A DNA stretch of 55,006 nt, filler included, from Sluysia triapertura (GCA_046118255.1; 4 parts of 4 records of this genome joined end to end with filler, not necessarily neighbours in it); one strand, 5' to 3'. Counted from the first letter of the whole stretch, positions 2,830-51,530 are shown. Translations and numbers: made by a program. Notes: generated by a model from the letters alone, not told the origin.

Positions 2830-3075
2830 TTTATTTTTTCTTTTACAACAAATATTTGAAATGTGAAATTTTTTTAATCTTTTATTAATTAAGTTAAAAA
2901 ATTTTCATAACACAAAAACATTAAACTATAATTTTAAAACAATTAACGAAATACTAAATTTTTTAATTAATAAACTAGGCTTAAGGCCTGTAAAAAATAA
3001 CAATTTAAGACAAACAACAAAATTTAACGGTTTATTCATACAATAAAACATAGCGAAAAAGCGTATAAAAGTACT
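2830..3075 (-). repeat. Shared 3' module (copies at ~46070-46295 and ~50085-50260)
   Basis: TAAACTAGGCTTAAGGCCTGTAAAAAATAACAATTT versus TAAACTAGGCTTAAAGCCTTTATACAATAACAATTT (~46205), with weaker flanking similarity. Confidence 0.75.
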
Positions 3076-3199
3076 TATACCATTATAATGAAGTTTAATT
3101 GATATTTCTTTTCTATAATCACAATTAAGAAAGGTGTAGTAAAAGAGACCTTTTTAACGTTATCGATTGTTTTTACAGGTTCTCTTTTATTGAATTAGT

Positions 3200-6180
3200 G
3201 TGTAGTAGCTCCGGTATCAAAAGTGACGATTTGATTACTTTTATTGGGTCATTTTCATGATTTTGCACAAGTTTATATTTCGATATTGTCCAGCGATTGA
3301 GATAATAACAGTTTGGTTTTCATTATTAATTTTTATTATTCTATACGAACCTATATATCTTGGCTGCAACGAATGAAGGTTTTCCGCGATCAACCAGACA
3401 TATTCACTATCGGTGATACTTTGTGGTATGTATACATGCGATGAATTATTACTTACTGGTGATTTGTTTAATTCGCTGAAATATTCTCTTAAATGCCTAG
3501 AAAAAACATTTTCTTTTGGTAGCGAAGTTTTGAAGTTCGTATGGTAATCTTTTATTTATACCAAACACGATTTGAGCTGGAAAATATCCGGTAGATGAAT
3601 GTGGAATATTCCTCCCAACCAAGTAGTATAAGGGGCAGTGTATCCGATCAATTGTATTTGATTGATAGTGCCTGCAGTGAACTTTTTACTATGCGGTGAA
3701 ACTGCTCTATCATTCCATTTGATTGCGGATGATAAACTGTGGTTCGTAATCTGGAGCTTCCTAGATGTTTTAATAAACTATTGAAAAGCTCAGATTCGAA
3801 TTGTTTGCCTTGATCGGTAATTATTCTTTTAGGCACACCAAACCTAGCGATCCAATGCGTTACGAGGATATTTGTTATCGTTTCAGTAGATATTGAGAGC
3901 ATTGGAAACGTCTCCAATCAACGACTATGTCGGTCTATGATTGTTAAAATGTAAATGTATGCCCTTGAATTTGGAAGTGGACCGACAATGTCCACGTGAA
4001 TTGTGTCAAAAAGCTGACCGGTTGGAAAATGGAGGATTTCCGGTTTGGTATGTTTGGTTGTTTTTACCGCCTGGCAGGTGAGGCATGCTTTGGTCCAGTT
4101 TTTGACGTCCTTCTGTATAAAAGTCCAAATCACTTCATATGTGGATTTGGCACCTGAGTGCGTTGTGTTATGAATAAATTCGAACGCTTTAATCCTCAGG
4201 TTTGGACCAAGGACTGGCCGTGAAATTCCTGATAATTGGTGATCAAAATACACTCCTTCTCGTAGAGTTGGTGTTGAAGAGAACTTCAATAAATCTTCTG
4301 CTGAAGGAGGATCACCTTTTACATCTTCGATAGAAAACATCGACTGAAATTCGATGCTACTGATGCCAACTAGTGATAAGACATCAGCGACCACATTTTC
4401 CTGCCCAGGGATATGTTGTATGTCGAAATTTAACTGGGACAGGTAGCTGATATGCCTTTGTTGCCTTGGAGAAGGATTTTTCATAGAAAAGATAAATAGC
4501 AAAGGCTTGTGGTCGGTCCGAAGCGTAAATTTCACTGGAATTAGCAAGTATTCGAAGCGTTTCACTGCCAGGTAAATTGCCAAAAGTTCGCGATCAAAAG
4601 CAGAATATCGTGTTTGTTGGTTGAACAATTTATGCGATTAAAATTCAATTGGTCGTGGCACTTCGTTGTGGTATTTGGTTAAAACTGCACCAACTGCTAT
4701 GTTTGACGCATCGGTTGTTAAAATGAATTTTTCATTTGGTAATGGAAACGCTAGACTCTGCATTTTGGTAATGTGTTCTTTGATTTATTGAAATGCAGAT
4801 AACGAAGTTCCATTCCAGTTTATTATTCGCGTCTTTTTTCCAGATGATAAGGCAGTTAGTAGTGCTAAGATCTCAGAGAGTTTTGGAAGAAATCTGCGGT
4901 AGTAATTGACTAGGCCAAGGAAACTCCGCATTTGCGTGACTGTTTCTGGTTACGGAAAATTCCTTATTGCTTCTGTACGGCTTGGTAATGGTTCGATGCC
5001 GTCAGAAGAGATCTCATGGCCAATAAATGCAATTTTAGATTGAAAGAATTGGCATTTCTTTGATTTGATTATTAAATTGTGATCTGCCAGCAGTTTTAAA
5101 ACTTGGTCGAGATGTTCTTTGTGTGAATTATCATCAGTTGAAGCGATGATAATATCATCAATATATGCTGCAACCAATGGTAGACCTTGAAGTATTTGAT
5201 CTATGTGTCTCTGAAAGGTCTGAGCAGCATTTCGAAGACCAAACGGCATTCTTGTATATTCGAATAAGCCAAAAGGTGTTGTAACTGCGGTCTTCGCGAT
5301 ATCCTCTGAGTATACCGGGATTTGATGGTACGCTTTCGCTAAGTCAATCGAAGAGAATAACTTGCAACCAGAGAACCTATGTAAAATATATGTTATTAAA
5401 GGCATAAGATATGCGTCAGGGATCGTGACTTTATTTAGCATTCTGTAGTCACCGCATATCCTGACTGACCCGTCTTTTTTCTTAACTATTTGTAAGGGTG
5501 CCGCACAAGATGAAGAAGATCGGCGCACAATTCCTTGTTTCTCCATGTCGAGAAATTCTTGTTCTGCTTGTGCGCGGACTTCTTGAGATAGTTCCCGACG
5601 ACGTAATTTGCACGGTGCAGTTGGGATTGTTTGAATGAAATGGACAGAGGTAGAGTTATGATATGTTGAAAACTCTTCCCTCAGTAAGTTTGGATATTTT
5701 ATTTCTATGTATTGTGTAACATTCTCTTTATTGATAGAATTGTGGTCCAAACTTATCTGGTTTCTTGTTTCTACAGTCTACCAGGAGTTCGTAATAATCG
5801 AAGAAATCAGCTCCTAGTATTGGTTGTTGCACTGAAGCTATTGTGAAATCCCATTCAAACAATTTATTGAATTTTAGTAAATGGAATTTTAGTTTTTGTG
5901 TTCCTTAACACGCCACGGATAACCCGTTTGCTGCAGTTAAATATTGACTTGGTTGATTCGATTTTCTACATAGCGTGTTAGGAATCACTGATACCGCTGC
6001 TCCCGTGTCGATATGGAATTCTAGTCGTCGGTATATGAAATTTTCGAATATAAACGGCATGGAGAGTGATGCCATTTCGATCGGTTTAGCCGCTATAACC
6101 GATGCACCTTCAGTTTTTTGTTGGCGCTTTGAAGTTAGCGAAGTGCACGCAACCTTCCATTCACTTGCGCGCCAAATTCT
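3200..6180 (-). mobile_element. Decayed Ty3/gypsy LTR-retrotransposon: gag tail plus pol (PR-RT-RNaseH-IN)
   Basis: Gag end ARK*MEGC...KN*; protease HIDTGAAVSVIP (~5980-6015); [38 protein letters not shown]; RNaseH TTDASNIAVGAVL and RELLAIY; integrase HVDIVGPLP, ITDQGKQFES, YHPQSNGMIE. Domain order is gypsy-type. Multiple stops and a frameshift; no LTR pair seen. Confidence 0.95.
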
Positions 6181-6459
6181 TTAGGCCTATATCCAACAAT
6201 ACCTTTTATAAAGGACTAGTTATACTTTTGTGCACTTATCTAATTGTTATGCTGTACAAAATTATTCTATTCTTCCTTAGATAAGGAACTGAATGTAGCT
6301 ATCCTTCCTATAATTTACCCCTACTAACAATTACTTTTACAATTATTATTTGAAAATTATTCTACAAATGTTTGTGTTGAAGTATAAAATGTTTAATGCT
6401 TTTACAAAAATGTTTTATTAGATTATAATGCAAAAAAAGATAGAACAAGTAATATAAAG

Positions 6460-7560
6460 TGTGGTGGCCAACCCATTACGTTAAAAATTTGATATCAACA
6501 AGATATAACAAAATTCCTTTTCAGAACATTTCATAATTGTTAATGCTGGCAAACATTCCATACATAAAATTTCCTAACATTAAAATTATAATTAACATCG
6601 AAATTCATCAATGATATACTTTAAAAAATCATTTCAAAACACTTTAAATCTACAATTTTACAACACCAAAATCACATCTACATTCAAAACCATTAACCCT
6701 CATTAAATTTTATTCAAAACATTTTAAATTCACAAGTTTTCAACATCCAAACTTTGCCTCCATTCAAAACCATCAATGCTCATTTAAAAATTCATTTAAA
6801 ATATTCAAATTCACATTTTCAACATCTAAATCATATTCCACTCAAACCATTAATTTACATTTTAAATTCAATTCAAAACATTTTCAATTCATATTTTTAT
6901 TTCATTTTTGAATGGTTCTTAAAAGATTTATGTACAGATGGAGAAAAATAAGATCTTTTTTGTATAACTTTATTGTTATTATTATTATTATAATTAATAT
7001 TAACATTTTATTGCATTATTAATTATTATTTTCATCATTATTTTAACTATTAATAAGCGATTTATTCATCTCTCGACAGTTAAATTGAATTTAATTAGCC
7101 ACGTCATGTTGGTTGTTCATCGATAACAGCTAGTTGCCAGGATCGAGTGTTTTGTATGTGCTGATTCTGATCTGATTGGACATCCAATAAATACCTCTTC
7201 TTTTATGATCATTGTTATTGTAAGTAGGTGTCCAATCAATCGTCCAACTGGCAGATGCTACAAGCACAGCAAGAATTTATAAAGTTAAATGTGCTACTAG
7301 ATATCAAACAGATTTCAACACCCACTACGACAGAGTACAATCTCATTTAACAAATCTCGGAATCAACTTCAATTTACGGAAGTTACATAGAGAAGTTGTT
7401 GGATCTTGTGGTAACCACAACTGTGTTCCACTCGCCTCCGAAATATACAAAGAATTAAAAGTAATTCTAAATTTTTTATTAAACTTTATTCATTTGAACT
7501 ATTTTTATATCTCATTTATTTTAGAAGAGCGAAAGAAACGATCACGTGGCTTAATCATAA
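6460..7560 (+). mobile_element. Cassette copy A: motif, C/A-rich tract, hairpins, short frame, terminal intron
   Basis: TGTGGTGGCCAACCC 6460-6474; G-poor tract to ~6900; stem TGCCAG/CTGGCA (7135-7253) encloses TGATTGGACATC/GGTGTCCAATCA; open frame VQSIVQLADATSTARIYKVKC...EIYKELK; GT-AG intron 7461-7524. Confidence 0.55.
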
Positions 7561-9247
7561 AAGTCTAGAACATTATGCTGATAAATTTCAAACTTTTAAT
7601 GTGAAAACTAATAAATTAAATTGTTGTATTAGTCCTGATTTACTCGTATTATTTTCTAATTTAAAATTAATTGTTATAATTTTTAATAAACACAATTTTA
7701 GTATTCATTATCAATATTTATTAACTTGTCTCAATAAATTTAAATTAAATTTTCTAAAGAAATTTTCAATTAAATGTAGTAATTCAAGAAATTGTAATTT
7801 ACTCAATAATAAAAAACACAATAATACACCACATAAAGAATGTTATACACAGTAATACACATTTATAATTAAAATCAGAGGGTCTTTACTTATTTTGTGA
7901 AATAAATATAAACTTACCGCGATACATTACCGAAAACAGCAATAAACAAAAACAATATTGTAAAATTGTTTCTTTATATGCTAGTCTTTTTTGAAAAATA
8001 ATTTCTTTTTTGGAAAAATAATACTTCAAAAAGACTTTTTAAATAATTTTAAAGATTGTGATAGCATTTTTTTATTGATTTACAGGGTTGCGATAGCAAT
8101 CTGACATTATATAAGGAGTATTCAGAAAATGTGTTATAATTTGTATTAAAATTTGTAATTATTATTTAACTAGTGAATTATCAAGTTTATTACAATTTTG
8201 AACTGTATTTGATATTATTATTATTATTAATCATGATTTTGAATTATTGAACCTAACTTCTATAGTTATTATAACTAAATTATTTAAAATTTAGACATAA
8301 TCAAAACAGAAGTTTTAAACCCTTCTCGGTCCGATGATTTTATTGGAGTGCTGGTGTCCAGATGTATCTGAATAATTGGAAAACAAACACATTTGTAATA
8401 AATTCCAAATGATTCCTTTGGTAAAATCATTATCTTGTTAACTACATGTTTTCACAATAAATTATAGTATTAATTAGTTAACTTTCTCAGTAGGGCAACT
8501 CAAATAAAGCAATAAGAAATGTTTTTTACCAATTAATTTAATTTTATTATAATTAAAATATGACGTAAACTCAGTTGTAAAACAATTAACATCAACCAAT
8601 TATTTTATTATAAACTTTTATAGTATCCATAGTAAAATACACAAATTAAATTTAACAGTATATTGTTATGTAAGTATTTACTTAGATACATAAAATTAAA
8701 ACCAATTTTATGATATTTTTAGAGAATTTAATTTAAATTTTCGTCAAGACAGATTATTTACTCAAGAATCATTTCAATAAGTAATTAATTTATTAAATTA
8801 CTTTTGTTTCACAATATATTATTCAATAATTCATATAACCAGAAATTACAGTTTGAAGTAATTATTGCATCATTATTACAAGTAATACTAATTATAAATA
8901 TATTTCGAAAAACAGTTAAATTAACGTACCAATTATTACTTACGTTTATAATAAAAATAATACGAACATTCATAAAAATAATAAATTTATTACAATAATT
9001 TTCATTTTTCTGAAAACTAATTTATTCTGTGATTTCTAATTACCATGATTATTTATCTCGAATACTCATAAATCGAATAATATGTTTGTTATTAATTAAA
9101 ATCTTTGCAAAAATAATCAATATTGGTAAAATGTATGTTAATTAAGTTATTGCTTTTGAACCACATGACTTTTATCCGCACAGAACAAACAAGTTAAGTG
9201 ATTCAAAACTGCTATATTATAAATGGTTTCTTTTTCAATTTCGTTCA

Positions 9248-9660
9248 TTGTATACTTGTATTTCATCATCATATGGTTTAGATTTCATTGAATTCACTAA
9301 TTTTTGTTGTAAATACGAATTTGTATTTGGAGTGATTTATTATATAACATTCATTATAATAGAAGTGACTTATTCAAAATTGTCTATTGGTCGGATTATT
9401 AATTTGATTCCAGAAAGTTGCTTTGAAACGTTTACAGCTTTTATAGGTAATGAAGTATCTATTGACAGTGTTATCGTATGTCGAGTATTATGAGTACGTG
9501 AGATACAATTATATATTAATCGTTTTGCTGTGGTTTTATGTCCTAAACTTAACCTAATCAGCAAAATAGATTAACAGAGTTCGCCTACAATATACGGCTT
9601 ATCAGTATTTGTAAGTGCGTGAACGTAATTAATATGCAAAGAAAGATTCAATAGATTGCC
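9248..9660 (+). pseudogene. Possible decayed coding remnant, unidentified
   Basis: The 81-aa ORF continues in frame past single stops (VIVCRVL*VREIQLYINRFAVVLCPKLNL). No motif recognised. Confidence 0.25.
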
Positions 9661-9949
9661 TTACTAGTTAAGTGAGGATTATTGATTTCACTAAAGGAAG
9701 ATTTTATGTTAAAGTTTATGAATTTTCAATTACTCAATGATTCGTATATTAATAAATTATTCGCAATTGTGTAATAAAGTGAAAACAAATGCTATTAAAG
9801 TATATTATATCAAAATATCGACAAATTATTAACACAATAGTTTATGTTAAAAGAACAAAATTATACAGACAAATTATTAATATTGCAATAATAATAATAA
9901 TGATAATAATTTTAATTCCTCATACCTAGTCTAAACAAAGGCTCGGTCT

Positions 9950-10630
9950 AATTATGATTGAAATTTAAAATGATTTAAAATTTAAAAACAATTAAATCGC
10001 ATTTAAAAAAATCATTTAAAACATTTAAGTATCATTTTATAACATTAGAATCACAATTACATCTTTAAATTTTACCTAAAATGTCTAACATGAATTTAAT
10101 ACATCATAAGTTCACAATCTCATCATTTAGCTTTTTAGTCTTTCAAAGATAATAAAGACCTTTAAATAATGTCTTATTTAAACAGAAAGTTCATGTAATT
10201 TTCAAAAAGTTTATGCAATTTAGAATAATAGTAATAATAATATTATTTTTGTTATTGTTACTATCATCATTTTAATTTTTCATTATTTTTAATAATACTT
10301 TTATTAATTTACTAAATTTGCAACTACCACTATCAACAGTGACACTATTAATTCATACTTACAGTTTATTGTCACTATTGATAGTGGTTGTGTTTTCAAC
10401 ATACGTAAAATCTTACTATTACTCATCAGTCGACGGGCATTTTAAATCTTTTGATGTTGCTTTACTAACTGTCGATTGATGACGGTTCTTTGTTAGTGTT
10501 TCTGAGTATTTTGATGATTGCCCAATTAAAATTATGAATATCACTATCTTTTTGTGTTTTGATTGGGCAACCATTCACATTATGAAAAAGATTTCTCATC
10601 ATAATTTCTTGTTGTCATTGTTAGTTTAAA
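9950..10630 (+). repeat. Cassette copy D leader: 5'-truncated C/A-rich tract plus three long hairpins
   Basis: Tract resembles 6615-6740 and the reverse complement of 22380-22510. Hairpins at 10326-10388, 10423-10482 and 10518-10570. Confidence 0.65.
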
Positions 10631-10651
10631 AAACATAATATTAAAACTTAC

Positions 10652-11582
10652 TTTAGAGATTTTTATCTTAAAAATAAAAACAGCAATGGCAATTAACAAT
10701 AAAGAAGACATGCAGCGTAGATTAAAAGCTCATATAGAATTAATAAATTTCTCTTCAAACGTGGAAACACACATTACAATAACTCCAAGAATTAATGATA
10801 AAGAAAATTTTGAAATAACTACTCTACGATTTGATGTTGTAAATGATAGCATCAGAGAACAAGTTGAATTTATAATTGATTGAGAAAATAGATGCCGAAA
10901 GATGTGACTTAAGTATTAATTCTTTATTTTTAGATGAAGATGTATTTGTTTATGAATAACTTGGTTACAGTAAAGATTTAGAAAATAATATTATCTGTTT
11001 TATTGGAATCAGTGCTAATCGAAGTCAAGAACATTATTTAAGAATTTTACGATATTTTAGATTTTCTGGAAGAATCCAATCCATGCGTTGAAGAAATTTT
11101 ATCTGATATCAAACGAAATCCCGATAGTCTAAAAATTATTATCGGTGAATATATTTTGGCAGAATTGAATAAAATTATTAAAGGTAAACACGCATGTGAT
11201 ATATTAAAGCGAATGTTTAAAGTAAATTTGTTTTCTTATATCGATTTAGTAAAAAATAATTTTTAAACTAAGAAAAAACGATTTTGTGAGTTTTATGAAA
11301 ACTTACAGAAAATTGATGCTAAAAGTGCGACGTTTGTAAATTAATTATTGATAATGAAAAGGAAGTAGAAATTATTCGCAAGCGTTTTAAGTTAAACAAT
11401 AATGACTTATTTATTATGCGTTATTGATTTGATAAATGTGATACGAAGGTGACATTGAAAAATTAACAAGATGATTTCATAATATGCGATATTAAAAAAG
11501 AATTCAACATAATCGATTGGAAATATGTCAATTCGAATCGTTGAAATTACTAGGAAGACCAGAAACAATTGATGAATGGTCT
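10652..11582 (+). pseudogene. TRNT1: Intronless decayed copy of the CCA-adding tRNA nucleotidyltransferase
   Basis: Across frameshifts: ETHITITPRINDKENFEITTLRFDV...VEFIID*; DAERCDLSINSLFLD; [12 protein letters not shown]...[19 protein letters not shown]; IGEYILAELNKIIKGKH; ETIDEWS. These match animal class II CCA-enzyme motifs as I recall them ([49 protein letters not shown]). RRD and EDxxR motifs are mutated. Confidence 0.9.
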
Positions 11583-12149
11583 TTAAAAAAGAACAACGTT
11601 CAAACTGATACTACCAAAACTCAATTAATCCGATCAGATCTGGACGATGAGTCACGACACTTCAAGTCTGGTTTGTGTCTAGATGCTGTGACCTAGACGG
11701 AACATGTATAAGGTATGGTAGTAACTTATCCTGGACGTCACGCTTAACGAATCATAATCATCGAATTCAACAACTCGTTTCGTCATTGAGAGAAATATCT
11801 TTGGACAATAACAAATGTCATAACTTAAAAGTAATCATATTTTTTTATTCTAATCTTGTTGATACTCTTATAATCATGTTTTATTATCCCTTAATATTTT
11901 TTAGAAACCTGGAAAGTTTGCCTTTGAAACATGCCAAGGAAATGATGTGCAAGAAACGTATTTCAAAATTAATTGTCAATAAATTTTTAAATTTAAGTTT
12001 TCTTCATTCATTTAATGTTAAAAAAGATTGTGAAATGTACCAAAGAATGTTTAAACTTTAATGCTAATCTAAATATTAAACTAAAAAATGTACGAATTTA
12101 TTTAAATTTAAAAGTTCTAAATCCTAAATTTCAACGTATACCCCAACAC

Positions 12150-28035: not shown

Positions 28036-28135
28036 NNNNNNNNNNNNNNNNNNNNNNNNNNNNNNNNNNNNNNNNNNNNTTAATTAATTAANNNNNNNNN
28101 NNNNNNNNNNNNNNNNNNNNNNNNNNNNNNNNNNN
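28036..28135. other. Artificial scaffold linker
   Basis: N44-TTAATTAATTAA-N44. Confidence 0.97.
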
Positions 28136-30159: not shown

Positions 30160-30322
30160 TAATGTTGGGATTGACCAACTGTAGATCAGGAGATGAATGA
30201 GAAACATATACATTTAGTAGATGAAGTACAATTCTAAGTTCTGATAATAGAAATAATGTTATACTTCATAAAATGGACTGACCGGGGATCGAACGAGGGA
30301 CCTCTCGCTGCGCAGTTCGATG
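30160..30322 (-). mobile_element. tRNA-derived SINE-like remnant (3' half of a tRNA-Ala-like head plus body)
   Basis: Minus strand GCGAGAGGTCCCTCGTTCGATCCCCGGTCAGTCCA contains a B-box/T-arm. The adjacent body motif AAGTACAATTCTAA(GTTCT) recurs at ~29019 and ~29102. No 5' half or A box. Confidence 0.6.
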
Positions 30323-30371
30323 ATTAAAAACATGTATTAATATAATAGTTTTCGACTCTTCTTTCTTCTAT

Positions 30372-31750
30372 TCAGGGACCTTGTAGGACATGGTCGCGGT
30401 ATGCGTTATTCGAGGACTCCACAGCTAGTCGTGCACACTGGTGCGAGGGTCTTGATTTCGGTCTTGTGGAAGCCAAGTGCCTTGAAAAACTTGTCATTCT
30501 CGGAATCCCATGACACCAAGGCTCCAACGACACCAAGAGGCACCTTGCACTTCAGTTGTTCATGCAGTTTACCCTGACGATCAGCATACTTCGCAATAGT
30601 GATAGTTCGGATTATTTCGAAGGTTTTTTTCAGGACCATGGGAGTCATGATATCAAACAAGAACAGTTGGGATGAGGAAGTACCCATGGCCTGTATGTCA
30701 GGTCGCCGAGTGTCACTGATAATTGGTGTAGGTGAATCCTTATTCCGGTTATTTAGTTTTTGACTTCGAGATAAGTTCGGTGTATTTGATGTTCTTGTTT
30801 AGTAAATCATGAATTCTGTACCGTTTATAGTCACTAAATTGAACGCCAAGATATAGAGTTTCGTTTTCGCTGGTGACACATGAATCGGAGTATTTTCGAT
30901 GAGTATGGAATATCTCGAGTCCCGGGATGTTATAGTTGAAGAAGCATTTCGTAGGCAGGAATATGAGGTTGGCTGATTTCGCATTTTGGACAACTCCGTT
31001 AACAATTTGTTGTAGTCCATCGAAGGTAGTGCCGATGAGGGCTATATCGTCAGCACATGCTACGTATGGAAGAAATTTCTGGTCATCAGTTATTTTGATG
31101 TAGTCATCATCCGTGAACTGGAGGACAGAATAGTGTCATGGACAATGGACATCCTTGTTTCACTCCATACATGATCGGTACGGCTTTAGTTATAATACCA
31201 TTGAATTTGTAGGTGATACTGCTGCCTTTATATAGGTCCTTCAGGATGTTCAGGGTTTACTGTTGGAGTCCCATACTTGAGAGTGTATGCCATATTAGAT
31301 TGCATTCGCCAAGTCGAGAAAGACAATGTGTAATTCGATTTTGCGCGATTTATCGACTCCACTATTTCTTTAAGTGAGTGGAGTAGGAAGTTGTGCTCGG
31401 TGCATCCATCTGATTGGAGAAGAGCAGCTTGGTGTGTACTAATGAGGTTGCCACTTTTGATCCATGCCAGTAAGCGGTCATTCAAGATCTTGGCAAAGAC
31501 TTTATAATTGCAGTCCACTATAGGTATATGTCTCTGTGAAGCGACGTCTTGCGCCAAGTCATATTTATTGGGTTTGATTATCAGTAGAGTGTTGTAGTTC
31601 TTCCAAGCAGTCAGGAATTTTTGGTTGATCAAGATTCTGTTAAAAGTTGACCAGTGGGATCGGAATTTCTTAAATTCTCAAATGTTATGACTTGGTTGTG
31701 GCCTGATGCTGAGTGGTGAGGATCTCAATCTCCAGGATGGTATCAGTACT
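30372..31750 (-). mobile_element. Decayed, internally deleted RLE-type non-LTR retrotransposon (NeSL/Utopia-like)
   Basis: RT motifs QAALLQSDGCTEHNFLL, FLDLANA, YGVKQGCPLS, YVACADDIAL. Endonuclease motifs RRPDI...LFDIMTP...AKYAD, VVGALVSWDSENDKFFKALG, SSNNAYRDH. Frameshifts present; zinc knuckle not seen. Confidence 0.85.
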
Positions 31751-32039: not shown

Positions 32040-32290
32040 AATAATTAATATTTTTCTTAGTGTTTGTTGCGTCACTCGTGGTTTCATTAGATAGATTGTT
32101 ATATCCTTGATACTATTATAAACGTTGTTACTCATTTTTAGTATTGTCTAATGGAGATTTATAATAATAATAATAATAATAACAATAATAATAATTTGAT
32201 TTTTGTTTAACGAGTAAATTATTGTGTTGTTATTGATTTGATTTTCAATGGCTTAATTTTGGGGTGAATAATTATTATTATCAAAGTTTG
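32040..32290 (-). repeat. Inverted copy of 44360-44600
   Basis: Reverse complement shares AAGCYATTG.AAATCAAATCAA...ACACAATAATTTAC...TTAAACAAAAATCAAA and GAGTGACGCAACA.ACACTAA. Confidence 0.8.
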
Positions 32291-32401
32291 AGAATAACTG
32301 AAAATTTATATTTAATATAGTGACCACTTAAATTATTGCGATTTTATTAAAGTTAATTAATTTGATATTGATTTAGCGTAATTAATAATTTTCAAAGACG
32401 C

Positions 32402-32447
<46 letters not shown>

Positions 32448-36900: not shown

Positions 36901-36922
36901 TACACAATTTATTTGTACAAAA

Positions 36923-38032
36923 ATGATTAAAAACAAGACTTTCCTTAAATTTCATACTATACATCTCATACTTAAATCTCATACTATACATCGTTCCTAC
37001 ACTCAATCAGAACTGGTCAATTATCATCGAAATTTGCAACGTAATCAAATGATTTCAAATATTGTTATACGAAGTTATGAATTATTAGATTTAATGTCTC
37101 ATATGAAACAATAGACTTTTAATGAATTTCAGAACCTACAGAATGCACGTACTTGCAATTTTGCTACTTCGGATTGCCGTTTGAAATATTTACTTAGCCT
37201 GTATGAAGATATACAGATATGTTACAATATTTTACATTTATTATCGAATTTTATACATAACAATTTAAATATTCAAGCTTATTTATTTTATTGTCAATTT
37301 AACCGAAAAGATTATTTACAAAATTTTCATTTATTGTCGTCACAAATGATTTTAGTAAGTCGACGAGTTATATCGCAATTCTCTTTAGTATTGTCACACT
37401 CAGAATTCTCGCTCCCTTTACGTCAAGTTCGTTGGCAAATACTATTTAGTATCGAAAATTTCCAAATATACATCGATGTTCATTCAGTAGAAAAGTCACA
37501 AAAATTCAATCGTGATCACTGTTCATAAGAATTATTTAGTTTTGATTTTGTTAATTATTCATTGGATCATCAAATTATTAGCATACAATTAATGTCGTTC
37601 AGTACTATGTTATATAAATTTACGTTGGAAGGATTAATTTTGTTTACTAATGATGCCAATCGTTATTTAATTAAAATAAAATATTTTAATGATTCGTTGA
37701 GTAATCGGTGGAGTCAATATATAACATTGATGGACAAATATGTCGTAAAAGAAATTAGTGATAAATTATACGATTCCGAAAGAATGTTATCATTTGCAAA
37801 ATATTCACATTATAGAGCTATCGAAATGTATAAAGATAAGGTAGTTATATCTTCGTCGCTTTCAGATAAAGAATGCAGTTATTTAATAGAGCAATTAGTT
37901 AACAATATGATCACATTAGTTTTTAATTGATGGCGAATGCTAAGAGATCATTATCTTATCCGGCAATCATTTTCTTCGGGTGAACAAATACGGTTGACAT
38001 CCACCAAAACCTTAAATATTGGAAGATACTCG
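36923..38032 (+). pseudogene. ~370-codon single frame with 3 stops; gamma-tubulin complex component (GCP4-like) C-terminal domain
   Basis: ORFs at 36923, 37181, 37562 and 37937 share one frame. VSRRVISQ...LRQVRWQILFSIENFQIYIDVHSVE...FSFDFVNYSLDHQIISIQLMSF resembles GCP4 SVRRVQ...LRNHMAFLVDNLQYYLQVDVLE...RDFESIRLAHDHFLSNLLAQSF as recalled. Intron 38033-38087 follows. Confidence 0.5.
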
Positions 38033-38479
38033 GTAAATTTTTATTATTCGTGTATAATTAATAATTATAATATCTTTTATTTTTTAGATTGTAATTATAA
38101 AGCTAGGATTCGCGAACTACAATGTGGTGCAATGACAATCATTATGTCAGCAAATTTATCATTACAAGGAAATATAAAATATATGTTTAGAATTCATTTT
38201 ATATTCAATAAAATCTTTTTCTTTATTTCTTATAAGGTTTTTATTACTCCTTCAAAAAGTTAAATTATTATTACTTCAAATCCAAGTTATGAACTATAAT
38301 GTAGAGAATAATAGGAACAATTTTACAAATATGTTTTAGGTCAATTGATAACAAACGTAACTATATTTGCCTTATATTAATAACTTCCTTCTCTGCAACA
38401 TCAAAACTCGAATATATATCGTAAGAGATTAATCTATAATAAAAACTTTATTATTAAATTTAAAATTAAACATATTATT

Positions 38480-40012: not shown

Positions 40013-40051
<39 letters not shown>

Positions 40052-40054
40052 TAT

Positions 40055-40154
40055 NNNNNNNNNNNNNNNNNNNNNNNNNNNNNNNNNNNNNNNNNNNNTT
40101 AATTAATTAANNNNNNNNNNNNNNNNNNNNNNNNNNNNNNNNNNNNNNNNNNNN
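40055..40154. other. Artificial scaffold linker
   Basis: N44-TTAATTAATTAA-N44. Confidence 0.97.
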
Positions 40155-40854: not shown

Positions 40855-40896
40855 TGGCAAAATTATTATATTAACATTATTATTATTATATTATTA

Positions 40897-40955
<59 letters not shown>

Positions 40956-42465
40956 TATCGAAATCAAGTGGTGATAATTCGTAATAATGTTACAGAAATT
41001 GTTCCGTTTTCTAATTGTGATTATGGATTTGTAAATAAATTTGATGAAATTCAAACTTTGCAATCATTTGAAGTTTTGCGTCTTTTTTCGATTACTCTTC
41101 AAAGGGTTCTCATATCATCTGTATTACCGTACGTTTTAAATTTTATTTATCGATCAAATTCCGGTCTCCTTTTACTTGCTGTTTGTGTGCACATTTATTA
41201 CAAGGTGGCTCAATATCCAGGCAACTTGGATCATGGAAAGTTGTGGGGCTATTCAAGTATTCATTTAGTTGTACCGTGATTGGAATTTTTTCATTTGATA
41301 ATTGAATAGTTTCAGAAGTATTTATTATTTCTCTTAATTATCTTAATTATTATTTCTCTTACTGCGTCATTGTTGATTCAGATCAATGTTGGGCTTTAAT
41401 TGTTCACTTATAAGTAGCGTATTTCGACATAGTTCACATAACTGGTCCATTATTTATTTATTTCGGATCTATTTTGAAGATTGTATTAGTTTATCATACT
41501 TTGTTATGTCTTCTCTCGCACTGTTTCTCGAGTGTGCTAGAGTAGCACTCGAAATGATGTGATATCAGTTGGTATGGTAGTTACTGGGTGGTTGGAAATA
41601 CGAAGAGATATATAATCGATTTCAAATAAGTACACTGATTTTTCAGAGACTTCCGAAAAAAGATATTCGATGCCGAGAGGAAATAAGATATTGAGGTAGT
41701 CTTTGGAAGTCTGTAGCAATATCAAGTTATTTATTACATCGTAACATCTGACATTTCTATTTAATTATTTCCATTTAGTTATTTGTGATCACGCAATTGG
41801 TTCGAGTACTGGTGCACTAAACAACACTTTGTTGACAGTAGTAATCACAATCCATGTTTTATCTTTATTTATTCGCCGTCTTCGCACACACACTGTAACG
41901 CTACTCTATGCCTTGCTTATTTTCGTATTGCATTGGTGATGCTTGGATTTGTTGAAGCTTATTTAGTTACATTGAAACATTAATTTTGGTGAATAAATCT
42001 ATTTTTGAAATTGGTGTTGTATAAGGGACCGCTAGACGAAATGTGAGATTTGTGGTGTACGATAATTGTTGAATCTGTAGCGAAATGAATATGACACAGC
42101 AATTCAGCAAAATCGTAAAAAATAAAAGGTTTACCAATTGTTGAGAATACGAAGGAAGTACAAGATTGTATAATTAAACAGGTATTAATTCCTCTTTAGA
42201 TATTTAAGTACTCAAAAGCGTTTACAATTAGAAAAAATCGCTTCAAAATTTAAGTTGATTAAATGATAAAATGTTATTTTAAATTGAGATGTGTTTATTG
42301 AAACAAAGAAACGTATAACCTAAACTTAATTAGCCATAGTAGAGTCTTATAAGACAGAACTTGACAAGATTGCTTGATCTTGGTTTGATTAATAATGTCG
42401 TTTTCGGGTCAAATGTTAGGCTAACTTATTAATTTTATTCACGCATTCTCAACTTCAGGGTAATA

Positions 42466-42947
42466 TAGGGTTGTGCAAGTCTCTAATCATCGAAATAAGT
42501 TTTTAACATATGAGTTGATAAAAGCATTAGAAGTATGAAAGAATGTATTTAATATTAAATAAAATTTTCTCTTTCGATTCATGTTCTCATATTTCTGTAG
42601 AATTCTTAACACTAATGAATAATTTCATAGTAATAATTATAAATCAATCGAGGTTTTAAGTGTATTAGCTTGATTCACCCGATTTGAATTTGATTGGAGA
42701 ATTCTTGAGTAATTAGAGCAGAATATAATTCTATAACGATCGTCGATTTTGATCTTACAACCGAACAGTCGTTATATCACATTTTATTGAATAAATAATA
42801 ATTATTCAATTTAGGAATATAAGAACATCCTAGAAAGAGCAAGAATATGAGAAAATTTTATTTCATATTAAATGTATGTTGTCACATTGTTAACTTTTAC
42901 ATATTAAATAAAATTACTTGATGGGTATATAGACTTGCACAACCCTG
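42466..42947. mobile_element. 482-bp MITE, Tc1/mariner-type ends
   Basis: Perfect TIR AGGGTTGTGCAAGTCT / AGACTTGCACAACCCT flanked by TA on both sides; internal IR AATATTAAATAAAATTTTCTC / GAGAAAATTTTATTTCATATT. Confidence 0.85.
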
Positions 42948-44359
42948 TAATAATAAGCGTAAAATTTTATTAATATTAAAATTTTATTAATTTTAGCTAA
43001 AAAAATTAAGTACTTTCTGTACTTTTAGAATTAATGCATGCACATTAAAAAAAAGTATAAATAAGCGCCGATTGTGTAGATCTCGCCATCAAAATTTTAG
43101 TAAAAATTCGTTTAATAAAAAATTTTAAATAACGGTTAAAAGAAAACAGCTCGCCACACAATAAGCATTATCTATTTTCTTAGACAAGCATTTTACGTGA
43201 GTCGAAACAATTTCTAACTATATAAATTAACAAATATACTTTTATGTTTTAACAAGTAAACATTATAGAGGGTTTTCTCTTGTCGTTTTTAACTTAAGCA
43301 TTTTACAAACATATCTAACTACTAGTATTTTTCTTACTTTCGAAAATTACCTCCTAACTTAAAGGTTCGTTTACAGTCTACGTTTGATCTCAAATAGAGG
43401 ATGCAGCTGTAAAAAGTACGACTAAAATAAATTCTTCAAATGATGGTCTACTTAATTCAATATCTAACTTTCGAAAATCTAATTAGTATACTGAGCAACA
43501 ACAAAAATTATCGAAATTATATAGTAACAAAAGTATGATAAATGTAAAGATTACTTAATAAAATATAGAAATCAACAGAAATTTAAGTCTTACAGATGTG
43601 AGGCAGTCCTTGCAGAAAATAGATTCCAAATAAAATCCAAAAATGTATGAGTAGCTGACTGCTCAATGTGTTCCAAATCCATTATTTGTTAAATGTTGTC
43701 TTCTGTTTTCTTGTCTTATTATTTTAAAGGTGATTTTTATAGAAAGTCGATGAATCTAAAAATTGGCAATAAAAATTTTTAAAACAAACTCAAAAATAAA
43801 TTCAGTATTAAAAAACTAATAAAATTTTCAGTAATAAAACTTTTTTAAAATAATACATTAATACAAAATCATTAAATCAAATTTTTGTTATTTTCCTCAA
43901 AGCTGCTATCATCAGTCTAATCCTCACAGGAGGTTCTAATGATGTGTATAAGAAAATGTTTGGTATTAAAACTCAAGAGTGCTTGGTTAATGAGAATGTA
44001 TAAAATGCAATAATTGTAAAATTTTACAACTCAAATAATGTTCGTGCAGGACAATGAAAGATCTATGATATAATCGTTTCTTAATGTTTTCAATCTTCAT
44101 TAAGGTCTCAAAACCTTATATAGGTCTTTGGAACTCCAAAGTATACTTCAACTCTTAAAATTATTAATAGATGTCTTCATTTATAATATTCTATATATCT
44201 CTTACTCATTTGTTGATACACACTTTGGCAATTCCAACGGTATTGTTGCATCTTTAAAAATTGTTAGCTATGATAATTCAATATTATTTTAATTATATTA
44301 AAAGAATCTTAATAATTTAAGTATTTACTATCTCAAGTATAATTTTTCAGTAATTCTTT

Positions 44360-45510
44360 TACTTAATATCAATAATTATTTACCTCAAAAATAAGCTATT
44401 GGAAATCAAATCAAAAATAACACAATAATTTACAATTAAACAAAAATCAAAATATAATTTATTGTCATTGTAAATCTCTACTAAAAAATATTCACACTGA
44501 CTAAAAAAGCCAAGATTAATAATAATGTTTAGAATAATATTAAGGACACTAGAATATAACTAAAGAAAACAGGAGTGACGCAACAGACACTAAAAATATC
44601 AATATCTAGAAAGTGAGGATTCATGATACTGCCTAAATATTTTTAGATAATTTAACCAAAAGGATGAAATATTATAACAAAAATTTTGAGCAGAGATCCT
44701 TCCTAAAATTTAACAATAATATAAAAAAATTAATTTAAAAATAAATTGTGCAGGGTGTCTCACAAAACTAATTTTAAAGTCCCAAAAAAATAAATTGCAA
44801 AGGGACTCCCCACTAAATGATTTTTTAAAATCCTTTAAAAACAGATAAAATAATAATGATGATAATAATAAGAATTTTAAGACGACATTAAAATAATAAA
44901 TTAGAATAATAAAATAATAAAATATCCCTATAAAAAGTATGGACCATCTTAATTCTGAAAATCTTGTGATTGTGTGATTGTGTTGTAAAAATTTAGAAGT
45001 TTTTATTGTACATTTCTCATCATCCAATCAATCCACAGTCTCACAATTAAATACTCTCACACAAATCATCCAAACTTCTTTGAGAATCAAACCGACAATA
45101 ACAAATTTGACAATTACATGGTACGGTATGTCAAACTTCATTAGGTACCCAACATATAAATTTGATTTATTATCAACCATTATTTCCTTTTACTCTACTC
45201 AATTTATTTTCACTTAAATTACTTCTCATATTAAAATAAAAATTAACAATATAATATTGTTAATATATATAAAAATAATGAATTTGATTTCACTTTTTAG
45301 AATTTAATTAATATTCGATTTTTTACACCCAATTTTCTAATGAAAAATGTTTTAAGCTTCTTATTCTCAAACGAACCATTCTACAAACATTTCAAACTCA
45401 CTTATATATTCTCCTATTTCATAGCAATCATCTCATATTTCATTCATTACATTTGCATCACTCTAAGTATAAAAAAATATAGAAAAATTAATTAAAATTT
45501 GACTTTGGTC
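44360..45510 (+). repeat. Long repeat module, copy 1
   Basis: 44940-45510 aligns by eye with 49548-50069 (CTTTGAGAATCA, TTGATTTATTATCAACCAT, TACTCTACTCAAT, TTTCACTTTTTAGAATTTAATTAAT, ACATTTCAAACTCACTT). The upstream part shares the TRACGCAAC motif and spaced GC islets. Confidence 0.85.
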
Positions 45511-46069
45511 AATATTAAAGCTTTCCTTGCATGAACTCGGTTAAACTATACACAGTTTCAAATTTAACATAGCATTTCTCATTCGAAAGTACTTTTTTTA
45601 GTTAAGTTAAGATTTTAATTAATTAATCTATTTTTAGACTTAATTTTATTTTATGTTTAAATGTTTATTAAGGTTCCTAGACTATTTAGTAAGTTATAAG
45701 ACATTCAGGAGGCTATAGATGTTTTCACCTTCACCTGTCCGATTCATTTTTCTGCCACATTAAACTTGTCTTCACTATTTTAAACAAAGATTTTATTTTT
45801 CAAATATTTTAAAGATTTTATACATTTTATAATATTATTCGAAGATCTTCAATGCTTATCAAGGTTTCCAGAATACTTAAAGATTAATAAAGTCTCAGAT
45901 TAGCTCAAAATTAACAAGCTCAAAGGTATTCTAATGCCTTAAACCCTCCACAAGGTCTTGAATGTCAAGGTATTCTTTAGCTGTTATTATTATTATAACA
46001 GCGATGATATGGAGAGGGCTTTTTAGGTTTTGTAAATATTAAATTAAAATTATTTATACGTAATTTTTT

Positions 46070-46295
46070 AAATGCACAAAAATTATTAGAAAAATGAAAT
46101 TTTATTTTTATTTTTTTATTACATAAGTTTAAAATTTTATCTAAAAAAGAACATTTTAATTTTAATTTTCTAACCATTAACAAACTGTTAAATTTATGAA
46201 TTACTAAACTAGGCTTAAAGCCTTTATACAATAACAATTTAACAAAAACGATGAAATATGAAACATTGAAGTAAAACGTAAAAATGCACTTACAA
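46070..46295 (-). repeat. Shared 3' module downstream of the CLASP copy
   Basis: AGGCTTAAAGCCT at 46211-46223 with flanks similar to 2830-3075. Confidence 0.75.
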
Positions 46296-46588
46296 TATAA
46301 GAATATAGTAGTAATAAGCGTCCAAATTTTATTATATGAACTGTTGATGCATAAACATCAAAAAATGTTAAGCATAAAATACTAAAGTGAATAAATTTTA
46401 AAATACTAAACTTCATGAAATGTTTACCATATATTTAGTAATAAAAATTTCGAAATATGACGATGACAAATCCAAGACAAACAGCAATAAATATTAGATA
46501 AAAAGCGTTTGCTGTTTTTACCTTTTTACAAAAATACAAAATTGATTTTTTATTATAGTATTTCAATTGGTAAAAATGTAAATAATTT

Positions 46589-48344
46589 CTATTTAATTCT
46601 ATTAACATACAGTTTTAAAAGATAAACTTTTGGTCGAGGAAACACTTTTAACTGAGGCCATATTTTATATTCTATTTTCTTGTATATTTCAATTAAACAG
46701 AATATAGTCCATTTTCTGAACAACAATTCTTTGTGATTTATAAAGATATTTAAAATAGCCAAAGTTTCCACTGACATTACATTTATAATGATGGAACTAG
46801 TGGCTCCTTTGGTAGCTCGCAAAAATCGCAATGCAGTTAATTTATCTATCGACTTAGTCGATTGCGGTGTTACGTCAATGATAAACGTATTTAAAGTGTA
46901 CCAAAGTGTATTTGTGTTGACACTTTGCAAAAATAATCATGCACGATGTGTTGCTTCTACGACTTCATTGTCGATATCTGAGAAATTAATAATCAGTTCT
47001 TCTGCCACCTGATGCATGGACTCCCGAAATCGTTCTGGTTCTGTTTTGGCAATTTCTTGAATAGAATCGATTGCTAATTTTCGAATGTTACCTTCATTAT
47101 AACTGAGACATTTGAGCAGCGCGGATGTTACTTATCCGAAATGAGTATCCCAGTCGAATTGTTTAACCGAGTAAATCCAGTTAATGGTAGAAATCAGTCG
47201 GGAACTTTCAAGCGGATCATCCAAATTCTTCAAGATCTCCTTCAATTCCATATTGTAATCTGCAATAATAGATTTATCAATGTTCATTGTTGCTTTATTT
47301 CTATTTTTATTTTTCTCATTACCATGTCCATATTCAACAATATTTTTAATCGAATATGACTCAGTGAAGTTTCTTGATGATTCATGATTCGAATATTTAC
47401 TATCCGAATAACTTTTCTGTTCCGTATTCCTTTTTTACTTTTACATAAACTATCATGACTTTCTGAAATGAAATCGTTGATCCTGTATCTCCTCGGAAAC
47501 AATCTGTTTTCTGCTGAATGGGAGACATACGAGTTTTACGACGATTAGATCTACTCTCCCGTTTGCTGTTGGCATTGGTTTATTATTGATGTCATTTCGA
47601 TTATATGTATTAAATTGGGATGGGGTGGTTCAATAACTCGTGTTAGACTTTGTGTATGTAATTTCTTCCGAAGAACCTTCTGACAACGCAATAGTTTTGT
47701 TTACTAATGCCATCTATTGCACCTTAAAGATAGGGTTATTTTCAACAGTTTTCGAATTATTTTTATCAGCGACAAAATGTGCAGCCATTCTAATGACTCC
47801 TTGAATATTATAATCATTGATAATTTGATCGTCTGAGAGCAAAAGTCTTTCTAACATAATTAAATAAACAATTAAAGTCACTAAACAAGAAATATTTAAT
47901 ATACAATTTGTTGCTACGACAATCTTGGGTAATTTTACTTCACGAGTTAATATTTTCTTAGCAAATTGTTTAGAATTTACAAAATTTCTTATGCACAAAG
48001 ATTGAGCCTTAACATTGAAATTCTAAACTCTCAATATATCACTGTATCGATGAGATGGTTTACATGAGCACTCAATCTACTGATATTTTAATTAATTTTT
48101 GAAAAGAATCATTGCGTATAATATTCTCGTAATTGAATTAGTCCAGAAATACGAAGAACTGACCGAATAATTATGAAATATTGCTTCACAGCAGTACTAT
48201 TATAAAACCATAATACATGTGAGTATTTACCAACGAACGTAAGCTTTAGTAACCATGGATTCTGAAATGTGTCCAACAAAATCATTTGATTGGATAAAAT
48301 CATAAATGAATCCTGGTATTAGCACAAATAAATATATGAATAGA
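46589..48344 (-). pseudogene. CLASP: Decayed copy of the CLASP/Orbit C-terminal region
   Basis: Frame ~47434-46589 with stops at 47134 and 46939: WDTHFG*VTSALLKCLSYNEGNIRKLAIDSIQEIAKTEPERF...DNEVVEA...FRKWTIFCLIEIY...PKVYLLKLYVNRIK*. Matches recalled CLASP WDEHFK...IRALAL...QPARF...KEVVRSA...VRKACVFCL...KMKLLNLYIKR. ORF 47714-47998 weakly resembles TOG3. No introns in the C-terminal block. Confidence 0.8.
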
Positions 48345-48692
48345 CTGGGAAAAACAAAAAAATAAAAAGAGAGTTTAAAAATAAGGATAAAAGAAATAAT
48401 AATGATAACAACAACATGATTATTATATGTTTAAAAATAATGATATTGTTGATGTTAATATGAAAGTTATTATAAAAATTATTATTTGATAATCATATTA
48501 TATAACAATAATGACAATAATTATTATATATATTGTTTAATACGATTTGAACTGTAGTTCATAATAATTATGTGCAATAATGTTTGTTTTTTGAATGATT
48601 TTAGTAATTTGTTTAGTGATCTATGTATATGTGAAATGTTTTTACGTGATGAAGTGTGATGAATTTTGAGTGATTTCCCTACAAATATTATG
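48345..48692 (-). repeat. Leader module: C/A tract, ATT tract, polypyrimidine tract and CAG acceptor
   Basis: Ends TTTTTCCCAG|TCTATTC; homologous to 1-85 and 54150-54415. Confidence 0.65.
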
Positions 48693-49099
48693 AATTCTAA
48701 ATCAATCAGTTAATTATTTCTTTATGATTTTATCCAAAATAACTTGGGCAGGAAATCTCTCAAAAACCAAAAATACTTTAATCTAAATATAAAAAATCAA
48801 TAATTTACAAAATGTTGCATCTTTAAAATTAACTTGGATAGGGAGCCTCTCAGAAATGAAAATTATTATTAGTAGAATTATTAACGATTTATTAATTATT
48901 ATTTAAAAATAAAATAATAAATAAAAGTGCCCATACACGAATATAACTACAAGCTTTATTTTGTGTTATTGTTGCGTCTTTGAATTATCCGATTATAATG
49001 AGTCAGTAATAGCTTAATTTACGTAATCGGAATCCCAATATTTTCAATACTTATCAAAAAAAATTTAAATTATCTCATATTAGATTAGTAACGGTAACT

Positions 49100-50069
49100 G
49101 TTCAATCCTAACAAAACTCAAAAAATAAATACAAATTACCACAGTAATCACAATAATATAAATGATTTAACTAGAAACTATAACAATTAAAAGAAAATTA
49201 ACAATAACTTTTACAACAATATTAACCCTTGTCAAAAGAAAAACCAGAGGTAACGCAACGAAAATTAAGATTTGACAAATAATACAAAACAAAATCAAAA
49301 TCGAATATTGGGCAGAGTATCTCCTACAAATAGTTAAAAATGAAATAATATACTTAAAATATTTTAAAATAAATTTGGCAAAGTGTTTCACACAAGTTAA
49401 CTTAAAAATAGCTAAAAATCAAAATCAAATACTTTAAAAATAAATTGAGTAGGGTTTAGCCCACCAAGTTAAATTATATTAAAATTGTTCAATAAAATTA
49501 TAAATAAAATTAAATGAAATTAATAAAAATTACCGACAGCATGGAAATGGGCCGCATGAATCGCGGCTGGTGTGGTGATGTTAAAAATTTTAAGTTTTTC
49601 ATCTTATACTCTTTTCATCCAAACACTTCTCAATTTCACAATCAAACACACAAATCATCAAAACCTCTTTGAGAATCAGACCTACAATAACAACTTCGAC
49701 ACTTACGTGGTACGTTCTGTCAATCTTCATTAGGAAAAAAATTGATTTATTATCAACCATCATTTTCTTCTACTCTACTCAATCTACTTTTACTTAAATA
49801 ACTTCTCATTAAAATAACAATGAATAATATTATTAACATGTATAAAAATAATGAATTTAATTTCACTTTTTAGAATTTAATTAATTTTATAATAAAAAAT
49901 GTTTGAGGTCCTTATTCTCAAACACACTATTTTGTTAACATTTCAAACTCACTTTTCAATTCTTCTTTTTCGTAGCAATCACCTCATATTCAATTCATTA
50001 TAATTCATCATTATAAATGTGAAAAATTCAACATTTCATAATTAAGAATTAATTAAAATTTGAATTTGC
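49100..50069 (+). repeat. Long repeat module, copy 2, abutting the stop codon of the 486-aa ORF
   Basis: Homologous to 44360-45510; contains TGTGGTGATGTTAAAAATTT (49571), reminiscent of the cassette start at 6460. Confidence 0.85.
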
Positions 50070-51530
50070 TCATATGGGCGTGGAGGTGTTATTATTATTG
50101 TTTTTAGGTTTCAAAACTTTAATTTTACGTTTATTGTATAATAATTTATGATCGTGAAATATGTGCTTAAGGCACTTAAAAAGTTTTAATTGAATACTAA
50201 TGTGCTTAAGGCACTTAAAATTACAATTTCTGAAGCAAAAGCAAGTATAATACACTGAAATTATATTATTAAAACCTTTGAACACATCTACAACTATTTT
50301 ATTTTTAAATTGAATCATGAATAGTTTGTTCATAGCTAACATGTTCAGTGACAGCCGGATTGGTATATTAGCATTCCCGTGTCCAATAGTTACTGCTAAG
50401 CGCGAACCGAATTCTCCGTCCCAGACTCGATCTGTCTTGCCCATACTTCCATAGAGAGTGGCCCAGGTGACTTCACTATGTTCGGTAGAATAAGATGGTT
50501 CAGGTAGAATAGGATAAAAATATTTAAGACAACGAGTAGTTTTATTTACCTCTTTATTGAGAAATATAAAGTTAAAATTAAATGACGTAAATACAAGATA
50601 ATTAATTTCAAAGTTTTTTGAACCTGATGACAACATAGTAGTTCTCAATTTCACAAACTCTTCAATAATGAAACCACTATCTAAGGACACACGTAAAACG
50701 TCTCTAGTATATTTAAACTCATGGTCGATCAGGTCTTTATTTATATTAAAACACGTACAATTTAAAAATCCTTTAATATAAAAATTAATGTTTAAAGATA
50801 TATCTTTAAAAACTTTTAATTCATTATGGGTTAAGCCCCTATTTATAACAAAACACACGTAATTTAAAAATTGCCCGACATTAAAATCGCTACTCGATAA
50901 CGCGTCTTTAAAGCTTTTCAATTCGTGATCCATTGAGTCTTTATGGATTGAATCACACGACGCGTAATAAATCATAGAGTTTTCAAAAAATAATTCGCTC
51001 AACAACAGCAGGCATACATCATGGCACCTCGTGATCACTGGGTAGTCAGATTCATTAGTTCGACTATTCGAATGAATCTCCACATTACTGTCCTTGTATT
51101 TGTGCGGCCCGCGACGCAGCATTTCATTAAAGTCATCCTTTTTAAATGAAGGTAGTCGCTTGGACTCGTACATAGTCACTGGAAATTTCATAACGTTGTT
51201 GTTTAAGGTGAGACAATCGCGACTTTCGAATATACCTGTGTCTTCTACATATACAGAAGGAGAACATGGTGCTCTATGGATAATACTTTCATTCTTTTGC
51301 AGATAATCCAGAGCATTACACAATTGACAATCTACTGATGCTATGAAATGCCCTGAAGATGTACTGAAGGCATCTTTTGATGGTGAATCATTATTTGTTC
51401 CATACTTCGGTCTGCAACGTTTAATCTTAATATATAAATTACTAAAAGGAACATCATTTACGCTAAGGATATTGTGGCGTTTCAATAACTGGATTAATGG
51501 AATAACATCTGATATTTCATTCATTTTCAT
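50070..51530 (-). CDS. Intronless 486-aa protein of unknown function
   Basis: 1461-nt open frame in very AT-rich DNA; possible acceptor AACCTAG|GTTATTGATCAG-ATG upstream. No domain recognised. The last ~65 codons overlap the shared 3' module. Confidence 0.75.
   Translation of the reverse strand: MKMNEISDVIPLIQLLKRHNILSVNDVPFSNLYIKIKRCRPKYGTNNDSPSKDAFSTSSGHFIASVDCQLCNALDYLQKNESIIHRAPCSPSVYVEDTGIFESRDCLTLNNNVMKFPVTMYESKRLPSFKKDDFNEMLRRGPHKYKDSNVEIHSNSRTNESDYPVITRCHDVCLLLLSELFFENSMIYYASCDSIHKDSMDHELKSFKDALSSSDFNVGQFLNYVCFVINRGLTHNELKVFKDISLNINFYIKGFLNCTCFNINKDLIDHEFKYTRDVLRVSLDSGFIIEEFVKLRTTMLSSGSKNFEINYLVFTSFNFNFIFLNKEVNKTTRCLKYFYPILPEPSYSTEHSEVTWATLYGSMGKTDRVWDGEFGSRLAVTIGHGNANIPIRLSLNMLAMNKLFMIQFKNKIVVDVFKGFNNIISVYYTCFCFRNCNFKCLKHISIQLKLFKCLKHIFHDHKLLYNKRKIKVLKPKNNNNNTSTPI

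Follow-up and report, generated by a model that had tools for sequence, protein, structure and literature searches.

The question raised here is why similar AT-rich sequence carrying a small hairpin lies at or near the 3' ends of three otherwise unrelated coding sequences on the minus strand. The window, that is, the whole stretch of 55,006 nucleotides from Sluysia triapertura that was analyzed, consists of eukaryotic DNA of ~25% GC, and the initial annotation proposed that a single 3' module with a covarying hairpin comes after a gypsy integrase (copy c1), a CLASP copy (c2) and a 486-aa orphan (c3). Linkers of the form N44-TTAATTAATTAA-N44, which have no strand, are present at 16818..16917, 28036-28135 and 40055-40154. 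The window therefore most likely represents separate scaffolds joined by these linkers, with c1 presumably on one scaffold and c2 and c3 on another, so that c1 is not physically tied to the other two.

Copies c1 (2808..3094, minus strand, 17% GC) and c2 (46031..46309, minus strand) give a local alignment (3094-2808 against 46309-46037) in which 201 of 293 columns match, with a z of 30 and a score reached by none of 300 shuffles; 198 of the 268 aligned bases (74%) are identical. At the level of sequence comparison, this establishes the two as true homologues and as copies of a ~290 bp repeat. One module at three sites was thus borne out for c1 and c2, whereas c3 is borderline: its likeness to them is confined to a core of ~45-60 bp, its local alignment score was reached by 22 of 300 shuffles against c1 and by as many against c2, and 11.6% of 1222 AT-rich tiles reach the score of its global alignment with c2. 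What links c3 to the module is a covariance model trained on c1 and c2 only, whose top non-training match it is (50140-50200, 26.6 bits, E 0.11; the next lies ~6 bits lower, at 20.4 bits), together with the same open frame and a contig joint leading from c3 to c2 (50218->46154). A pattern fitted post hoc to all three copies finds only these three. Pattern searches of metagenomes gave one match, in a contig of 49% GC and judged to be chance, and those of viral contigs gave none. The Rfam search of the window returned no match for the module and one weak match elsewhere. Overall, c3 is probably homologous to c1 and c2, at about two in three.

All four hairpins claimed within the module were found on the minus strand: AGGC-CTTAA-GCCT in c1 (2977-2989), AGGC-TTTAA-GCCT in c2 (46211-46223), where it caps a longer stem rich in A and U (RNA z -3.55), and two copies of GTGC-CTTAA-GCAC in c3 (50163-50175 and 50202-50214), produced by a 39-nt in-frame tandem duplication (50163..50214) within an open reading frame. 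The window has 16 hairpins in which four base pairs close a YTTAA loop; only these four have three G/C in the stem. GCYTTAAGC has four exact matches against 0.27 expected. The proposed stem covariation held in that both bases differ in two of the four pairs (16 of 500 shuffles); it represents, however, one event only: the double changes are seen only between c3 and c1/c2, the hairpins of c1 and c2 differ just in the loop, and the value of the covariation as evidence depends on c3 being homologous to the other copies. As a single event, it does not support an RNA signal. Compared with shuffles, c2 alone folds better, and the c1/c2 consensus structure retains four pairs, for which reasons the long AU-rich stem was rejected as a conserved structure. 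Each c3 hairpin also includes GTGCCTTA, which we take to be a miR-124 8-mer site; with 0.56 expected per window, it is unremarkable alone.

Next to c1 lies a decayed Ty3/gypsy pol (3126..6200, minus strand) comprising protease, reverse transcriptase, RNase H and integrase, with stops and frameshifts, a gag C-terminal remnant and no 5' LTR; its closest solved reverse transcriptase is that of Ty3, and its 5' end has been replaced by another repeat, not by the module. The homology between c1 and c2 begins ~30 nt past the complete integrase C-terminus. In Ty3/gypsy elements, a polypurine tract (PPT) and then the 3' LTR normally come after integrase. Just ahead of c1 stands a 10-nt purine run (3105..3114, minus strand), a possible A-rich PPT of a kind found in 51 of 2004 AT-rich 60-nt tiles, and just after c1 a tRNA-Trp primer-binding-site (PBS)-like motif in two halves split by AT-rich DNA (2763..2794, minus strand). 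This split pattern, which is post hoc and uses a consensus from the pertinent part of PMC2582038, has one match against 0.01 expected; the unsplit motif is absent, and no gag was found behind the split one. The distance from purine run to PBS-like motif is ~305 bp, and the mean length in the CsRN1 LTR training set, as given in one section of PMC3601003, is 330 bp. The decayed gag remnant (near 6150-6200, C..CX3C) resembles the CHCC gag motif described for the CsRn1 clade in the relevant portion of PMC2582038, and the gypsy remnant is probably CsRn1-like. Copy c1 itself has no TG start, TATA or TCA, and the GC content is 17% in the module versus 39% in pol. At 2456-2510 (minus strand), a 7-bp inverted repeat is followed by a GC-rich GTCGG/CCGAC hairpin, a structure absent from c2 and c3 that resembles a Helentron/DINE-type end.

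The sequence ahead of c2 is a CLASP copy (46589..48022, minus strand), intron-less, 5'-truncated, with premature stops and at single-copy depth. It matches the CLASP2 C-terminal domain (E 1e-10) and has no intron across 233 codons, whereas EZH2 nearby is split; no homologue of the piece was detected among 2149 longer candidates. Copy c2 carries TGTAAG at 46294, TTACA ending at 46031, TATAAA at 46228, TCA at 46199 and AATAAA at 46120, 46112 and 46106. Its TG..CA ends include a 5-6 bp inverted repeat (chance 0.09, found post hoc in AT-rich DNA), the TATA lies at -31 from TCA and is accompanied by AATAAA (chance 0.043, post hoc), and a GT-rich stretch follows AATAAA. TG..CA ends, TATA, AATAAA and a GT-rich stretch are LTR marks according to the part of PMC3601003 concerned, which also notes tandem repeats in U3; in the present case, each mark is weak or post hoc, in AT-rich DNA. 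No 4-bp target-site duplication (TSD) was found at the candidate ends of c2, which are uncertain, the copies being ~26% diverged, nor was a G-run PPT found at any copy; a purine run is likewise missing at c2 and ahead of c3. No second LTR was found in the window upstream of gypsy, CLASP or the c3-bearing reading frame, and upstream of CLASP there is no module or gypsy sequence except the far more diverged c3. A single LTR pair around CLASP, formed by c2 and c3, was considered and rejected since their divergence is too high for the state of CLASP.

Copy c3 lies in an intact, multi-copy 490-codon ORF (50070..51542, minus strand), whose residues ~3-120 form a truncated STRAD-like pseudokinase N-lobe: the N-terminus matches protein P0010 (33% over 124 residues), whose best solved relative is STRAD-alpha. 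The supposed orphan is therefore no orphan, and the placement of the hairpins at coding 3' ends needs amending for c3, where they fall inside the ORF, 138 nt and ~100 nt before the stop. No homologue of the ORF was found among 3854 candidates or 395 shorter ones, and none in viral contigs; 17 of 19 representative matches cover only residues ~335-396, in repeat proteins, and were set aside. An atlas search with the whole ORF returned kinase-like entries, all below 0.9, and one with residues 125-400 returned nothing; the single-sequence structure prediction had a pLDDT of 29 and was unusable. Beyond the STRAD-like part, no homologue was found, and the sequence belongs to no known family. A literature search on the combination of STRAD pseudokinase, multicopy and retrotransposon found no paper; among the by-products of the analysis, this STRAD-derived, multi-copy ORF is the most interesting. 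The last EZH2-like SET exon lies ~1.3 kb upstream of the ORF, and two N gaps that also precede the ORF (51667-51795 and 52119-52349) could conceal a 5' LTR.

Contigs of a single sequencing run were aligned, at 80% likeness, to 43600-51650 only; this run is possibly the source of the window itself, so the contigs are not independent evidence. Summed contig depth, which is rough and not equal to copy number, was 40-76 over CLASP, 390 just upstream of c2, 1746 over c2 and 869-1408 over the ORF. The module was expected to be a repeated unit, and the contrast between c2 and CLASP agrees with this: c2 depth is roughly 23-50x that of single-copy bins, which suggests that module and ORF are each present in tens of close copies. 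In the contig matches listed, a minority of the total, the reading frame of the ORF survives the indels whose letters are known: a deletion of 9 nt, a net deletion of 36 nt and a -1/+1 pair. The 36-nt deletion, seen in some contigs of the run, coincides with a GT..AG segment (51426..51461, minus strand) that is coding in STRAD (chance 0.009; in one contig a substitution at the junction has to be assumed), which hints at an RNA step in the history of the ORF. Immediately before the ORF, a 72-nt intron-like stretch (AT..AG; 51543-51614, minus strand) is skipped or replaced in one contig. Intron lengths of parasitic flatworms peak near 36 and 73 nt. The joint 50218->46154, leading from the hairpin side of c3 to c2 at a depth of 533, keeps the hairpin frame; it is a single contig match, with side length not given, in low-complexity DNA.

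Our preferred reading, held tentatively and with slightly less than even confidence, is that the adjacent gypsy family has the module as its LTR. Copy c1 would then be the decayed 3' LTR of the gypsy element itself, and c2 a related LTR, brought to the CLASP copy by a template switch of the reverse transcriptase (LTR-mediated retroposition); alternatively, c2 might be a solo LTR inserted behind a CLASP retrocopy. This would place the hairpin in U3, between the TATA box and the start site, and so make it a promoter or DNA motif rather than a 3' RNA signal, a role that we consider at least as likely as the latter. Diverged module copies are likely to supply the 3' end of other sequences. The least certain step concerns c3, which would represent the core of a still more diverged LTR, duplicated in tandem and now forming an in-frame part of the STRAD-derived ORF. 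All this would probably be a case of LTR reuse or LTR-mediated retroposition, which is known elsewhere, in a genome so far unstudied. Of the two roles initially offered for the gypsy pol, progenitor fits better than cargo, whereas the vector as such finds no support, there being no 5' LTR, PPT or TSD at c2 or c3.

As far as the sections of PMC2582038 and PMC3601003 concerned go, the module resembles CsRn1-clade LTRs (PwRn1/AgCR) in its post-integrase position, its length of ~270-305 bp, the TG..CA-like ends and AATAAA with GT-rich downstream stretch of c2, the tRNA-Trp PBS-like motif and the decayed C..CX3C gag remnant. Unlike them, it has no LTR pair, clear PPT or 4-bp TSD, its 5' motif is not TGTGGYG and its GC is much below that of pol. 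With LTR-mediated retroposition in animals, in the portion of PMC5131818 that deals with it, the locus shares a partial, intron-less mRNA copy in the sense orientation followed by LTR-family sequence, and the multi-copy chimeric ORF would fit re-mobilised non-autonomous copies. However, the retrocopies described there have LTR-element sequence on both sides and microsimilarity at the junctions, whereas beside CLASP no 5' element sequence was found and the flank is one-sided.

Rather unlikely, although the most durable of the alternatives, is that c1 and c2 are copies of an independent AT-rich dispersed repeat lying near coding ends by chance, with c3 a chance likeness or an old local duplicate of c2 and its downstream neighbour. 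That neighbour is a high-depth repeat, Y (~1.1-1.3 kb, summed contig depth up to 1.2 million), found after c2 (44241..45511, minus strand; another repeat fills 45511-45990) and after c3 (48965..50072, minus strand, 70-83% identical to the former) and absent after c1; as c2 and c3 are 4 kb apart and both have Y, they may be one local duplication. The distribution itself speaks against a chance repeat: a random site falls near a co-oriented coding 3' end with a frequency of 0.071, which gives 0.005 for two copies and 0.0004 for three (14 coding 3' ends, 8 belonging to ORFs that are unverified, within -150 to +400 nt, a range set post hoc), and 4 of 22 copies of other repeats lie near such ends, on either strand. 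An absence of position bias, which would make the module an independent small repeat, is thus moderately contradicted within the window by its location near co-oriented 3' ends. The bias is weakened by the ~10 repeat families present and the possible single duplication behind c2 and c3. As the window contains 10 or more further repeat families, one with such a pattern is fairly likely; in addition, the c3 alignment is not significant, PPT, TSD and paired LTR are all missing, and Y is common only to c2 and c3. Also against a chance repeat, c1 starts at the integrase end, between the PPT-like and PBS-like motifs. A repeat family at 44241-44603 and 48965-49330 (minus strand) and 32044-32408 (plus strand) ends in GA(C/T)GC followed by AAT-type runs, and is non-LTR/SINE-tail-like.

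Closest to the idea of the initial annotation, and improbable in our judgement, is a non-LTR 3' tail, in which a LINE reverse transcriptase would recognise the hairpin, prime on the module and switch template, yielding 5'-truncated chimeras. All cargo is indeed 5'-truncated and without a 5' LTR, AAT runs come after c2 and c3, and an RNA intermediate, which would equally suit the LTR reading, is hinted at by the intron-less CLASP and the contigs lacking the GT..AG 36-mer of the STRAD-like ORF. The small stem-loop near the 3' end, with constant loop and exchangeable stem, is also like those of stringent LINEs (ZfL2/UnaL2), at least as portrayed in the part of PMC4176376 that bears on them. Unlike in ZfL2/UnaL2, however, the hairpin is not beside the tail (in c2, ~230 nt separate it from the AAT run; c1 is tailless), AAT runs are ubiquitous in the window, no TSD of at least 9 bp surrounds CLASP and c2, and no partner LINE was found in the window, where the decayed non-LTR reverse transcriptase at 30406-31677 (minus strand) lacks the module. 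Moreover, the folding advantage is restricted to c2, and if gypsy RNA were copied starting at its 3' end, its own PPT and U3 should be retained.

The open frame shared by the three copies points in another direction, namely that the module is the coding tail, or the last intron and exon, of a STRAD-derived gene family, moved behind CLASP and gypsy pol by recombination, which we regard as very unlikely. The hairpin-anchored frame is open for 74 codons in c1, for 126 codons in c2 (45980..46357, minus strand, stop-free across the copy and without family match) and through the tail of the 490-codon ORF in c3; the empirical chance of this is 7.9% for c1, 0.8% of AT-rich sites for c2 and 0.8% for the 73-codon tail of c3. 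The frame-keeping indels listed for the ORF family and the similar depth of ORF and c2 would also suit this explanation, as would GT..AG segments of 93, 72 and 78 nt that terminate at a hairpin arm, but each copy offers 8-9 GT sites from which the donor was picked. Conservation of the module as coding sequence found no support: c1 and c2 differ by 1 synonymous versus 26 non-synonymous codons, with differences spread evenly over codon positions, the c2/c3 peptide alignment score is reached by 279 of 1000 shuffles, and a Pfam search of the module frames gave no match. Open frames in all three copies may be partly due to periodic low-complexity DNA; the module as a gypsy LTR does not account for them.

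According to the pertinent parts of two reports, the Helitron 3' end has CTRR ~11 nt after a 19-bp palindrome (PMC4778049), and Helentron/HINE ends have subterminal inverted repeats of 12-15 bp and a 3' palindrome at most 35 bp from the end (PMC4067079). A Helitron or Helentron terminus capturing DNA fragments is very unlikely, in line with the doubt voiced initially, since CTAG|T directly after the hairpin in c1 and c2, gene-fragment chimeras, the multi-copy chimeric ORF and the 72-nt intron-like stretch ahead of it are outweighed by misfits in spacing and hairpin size (CTAG overlaps a 13-nt hairpin), homology that continues ~170 bp beyond CTAG, the lack of CTAG in c3, subterminal inverted repeats that never exceed 6 bp with no such terminal palindrome, and no RepHel in 128 ORFs scanned. 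That Pfam scan of 128 short ORFs, which covered few of those within the gypsy, LINE, CLASP and STRAD-like regions, detected no transposase or GIY-YIG either. A hammerhead core, described for Penelope-like pLTRs and as absent in Naiads in the section of PMC8557442 concerned, has three matches in the window, none of them in the module, and domain scans of the window revealed no Penelope-like reverse transcriptase/GIY-YIG domain.

If the module is simply the LTR of the gypsy family, the case is an ordinary one, with one LTR after integrase and another near a pseudogene. A role of the module as a vector is possible, but its full form is doubtful: the gypsy LTR would have taken pieces of CLASP and STRAD mRNA and amplified the chimeric ORF via RNA to tens of frame-preserving copies, and the U3 hairpin region would have been recruited as a coding C-terminus. 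If true, this would mean that a truncated LKB1-adaptor pseudokinase gave rise, through LTR-mediated retroposition, to a new and amplified gene family, and that LTR sequence was converted into coding sequence.

Several other elements were observed in the window. A small RING-finger ORF (21000-21503, minus strand) has a CTGACGA motif just downstream, with no complete match to the hammerhead core. Consecutive open stretches at 37115-38263 and 10605-11400 (both plus strand) have no Pfam match and resemble intron-less genes in decay. In addition, two tRNA-like SINE heads were recognised by eye at 30270-30310 and ~26900, and the segment at 42461-42952, bounded by terminal inverted repeats (~110 bp arms, 72%), is probably a MITE.
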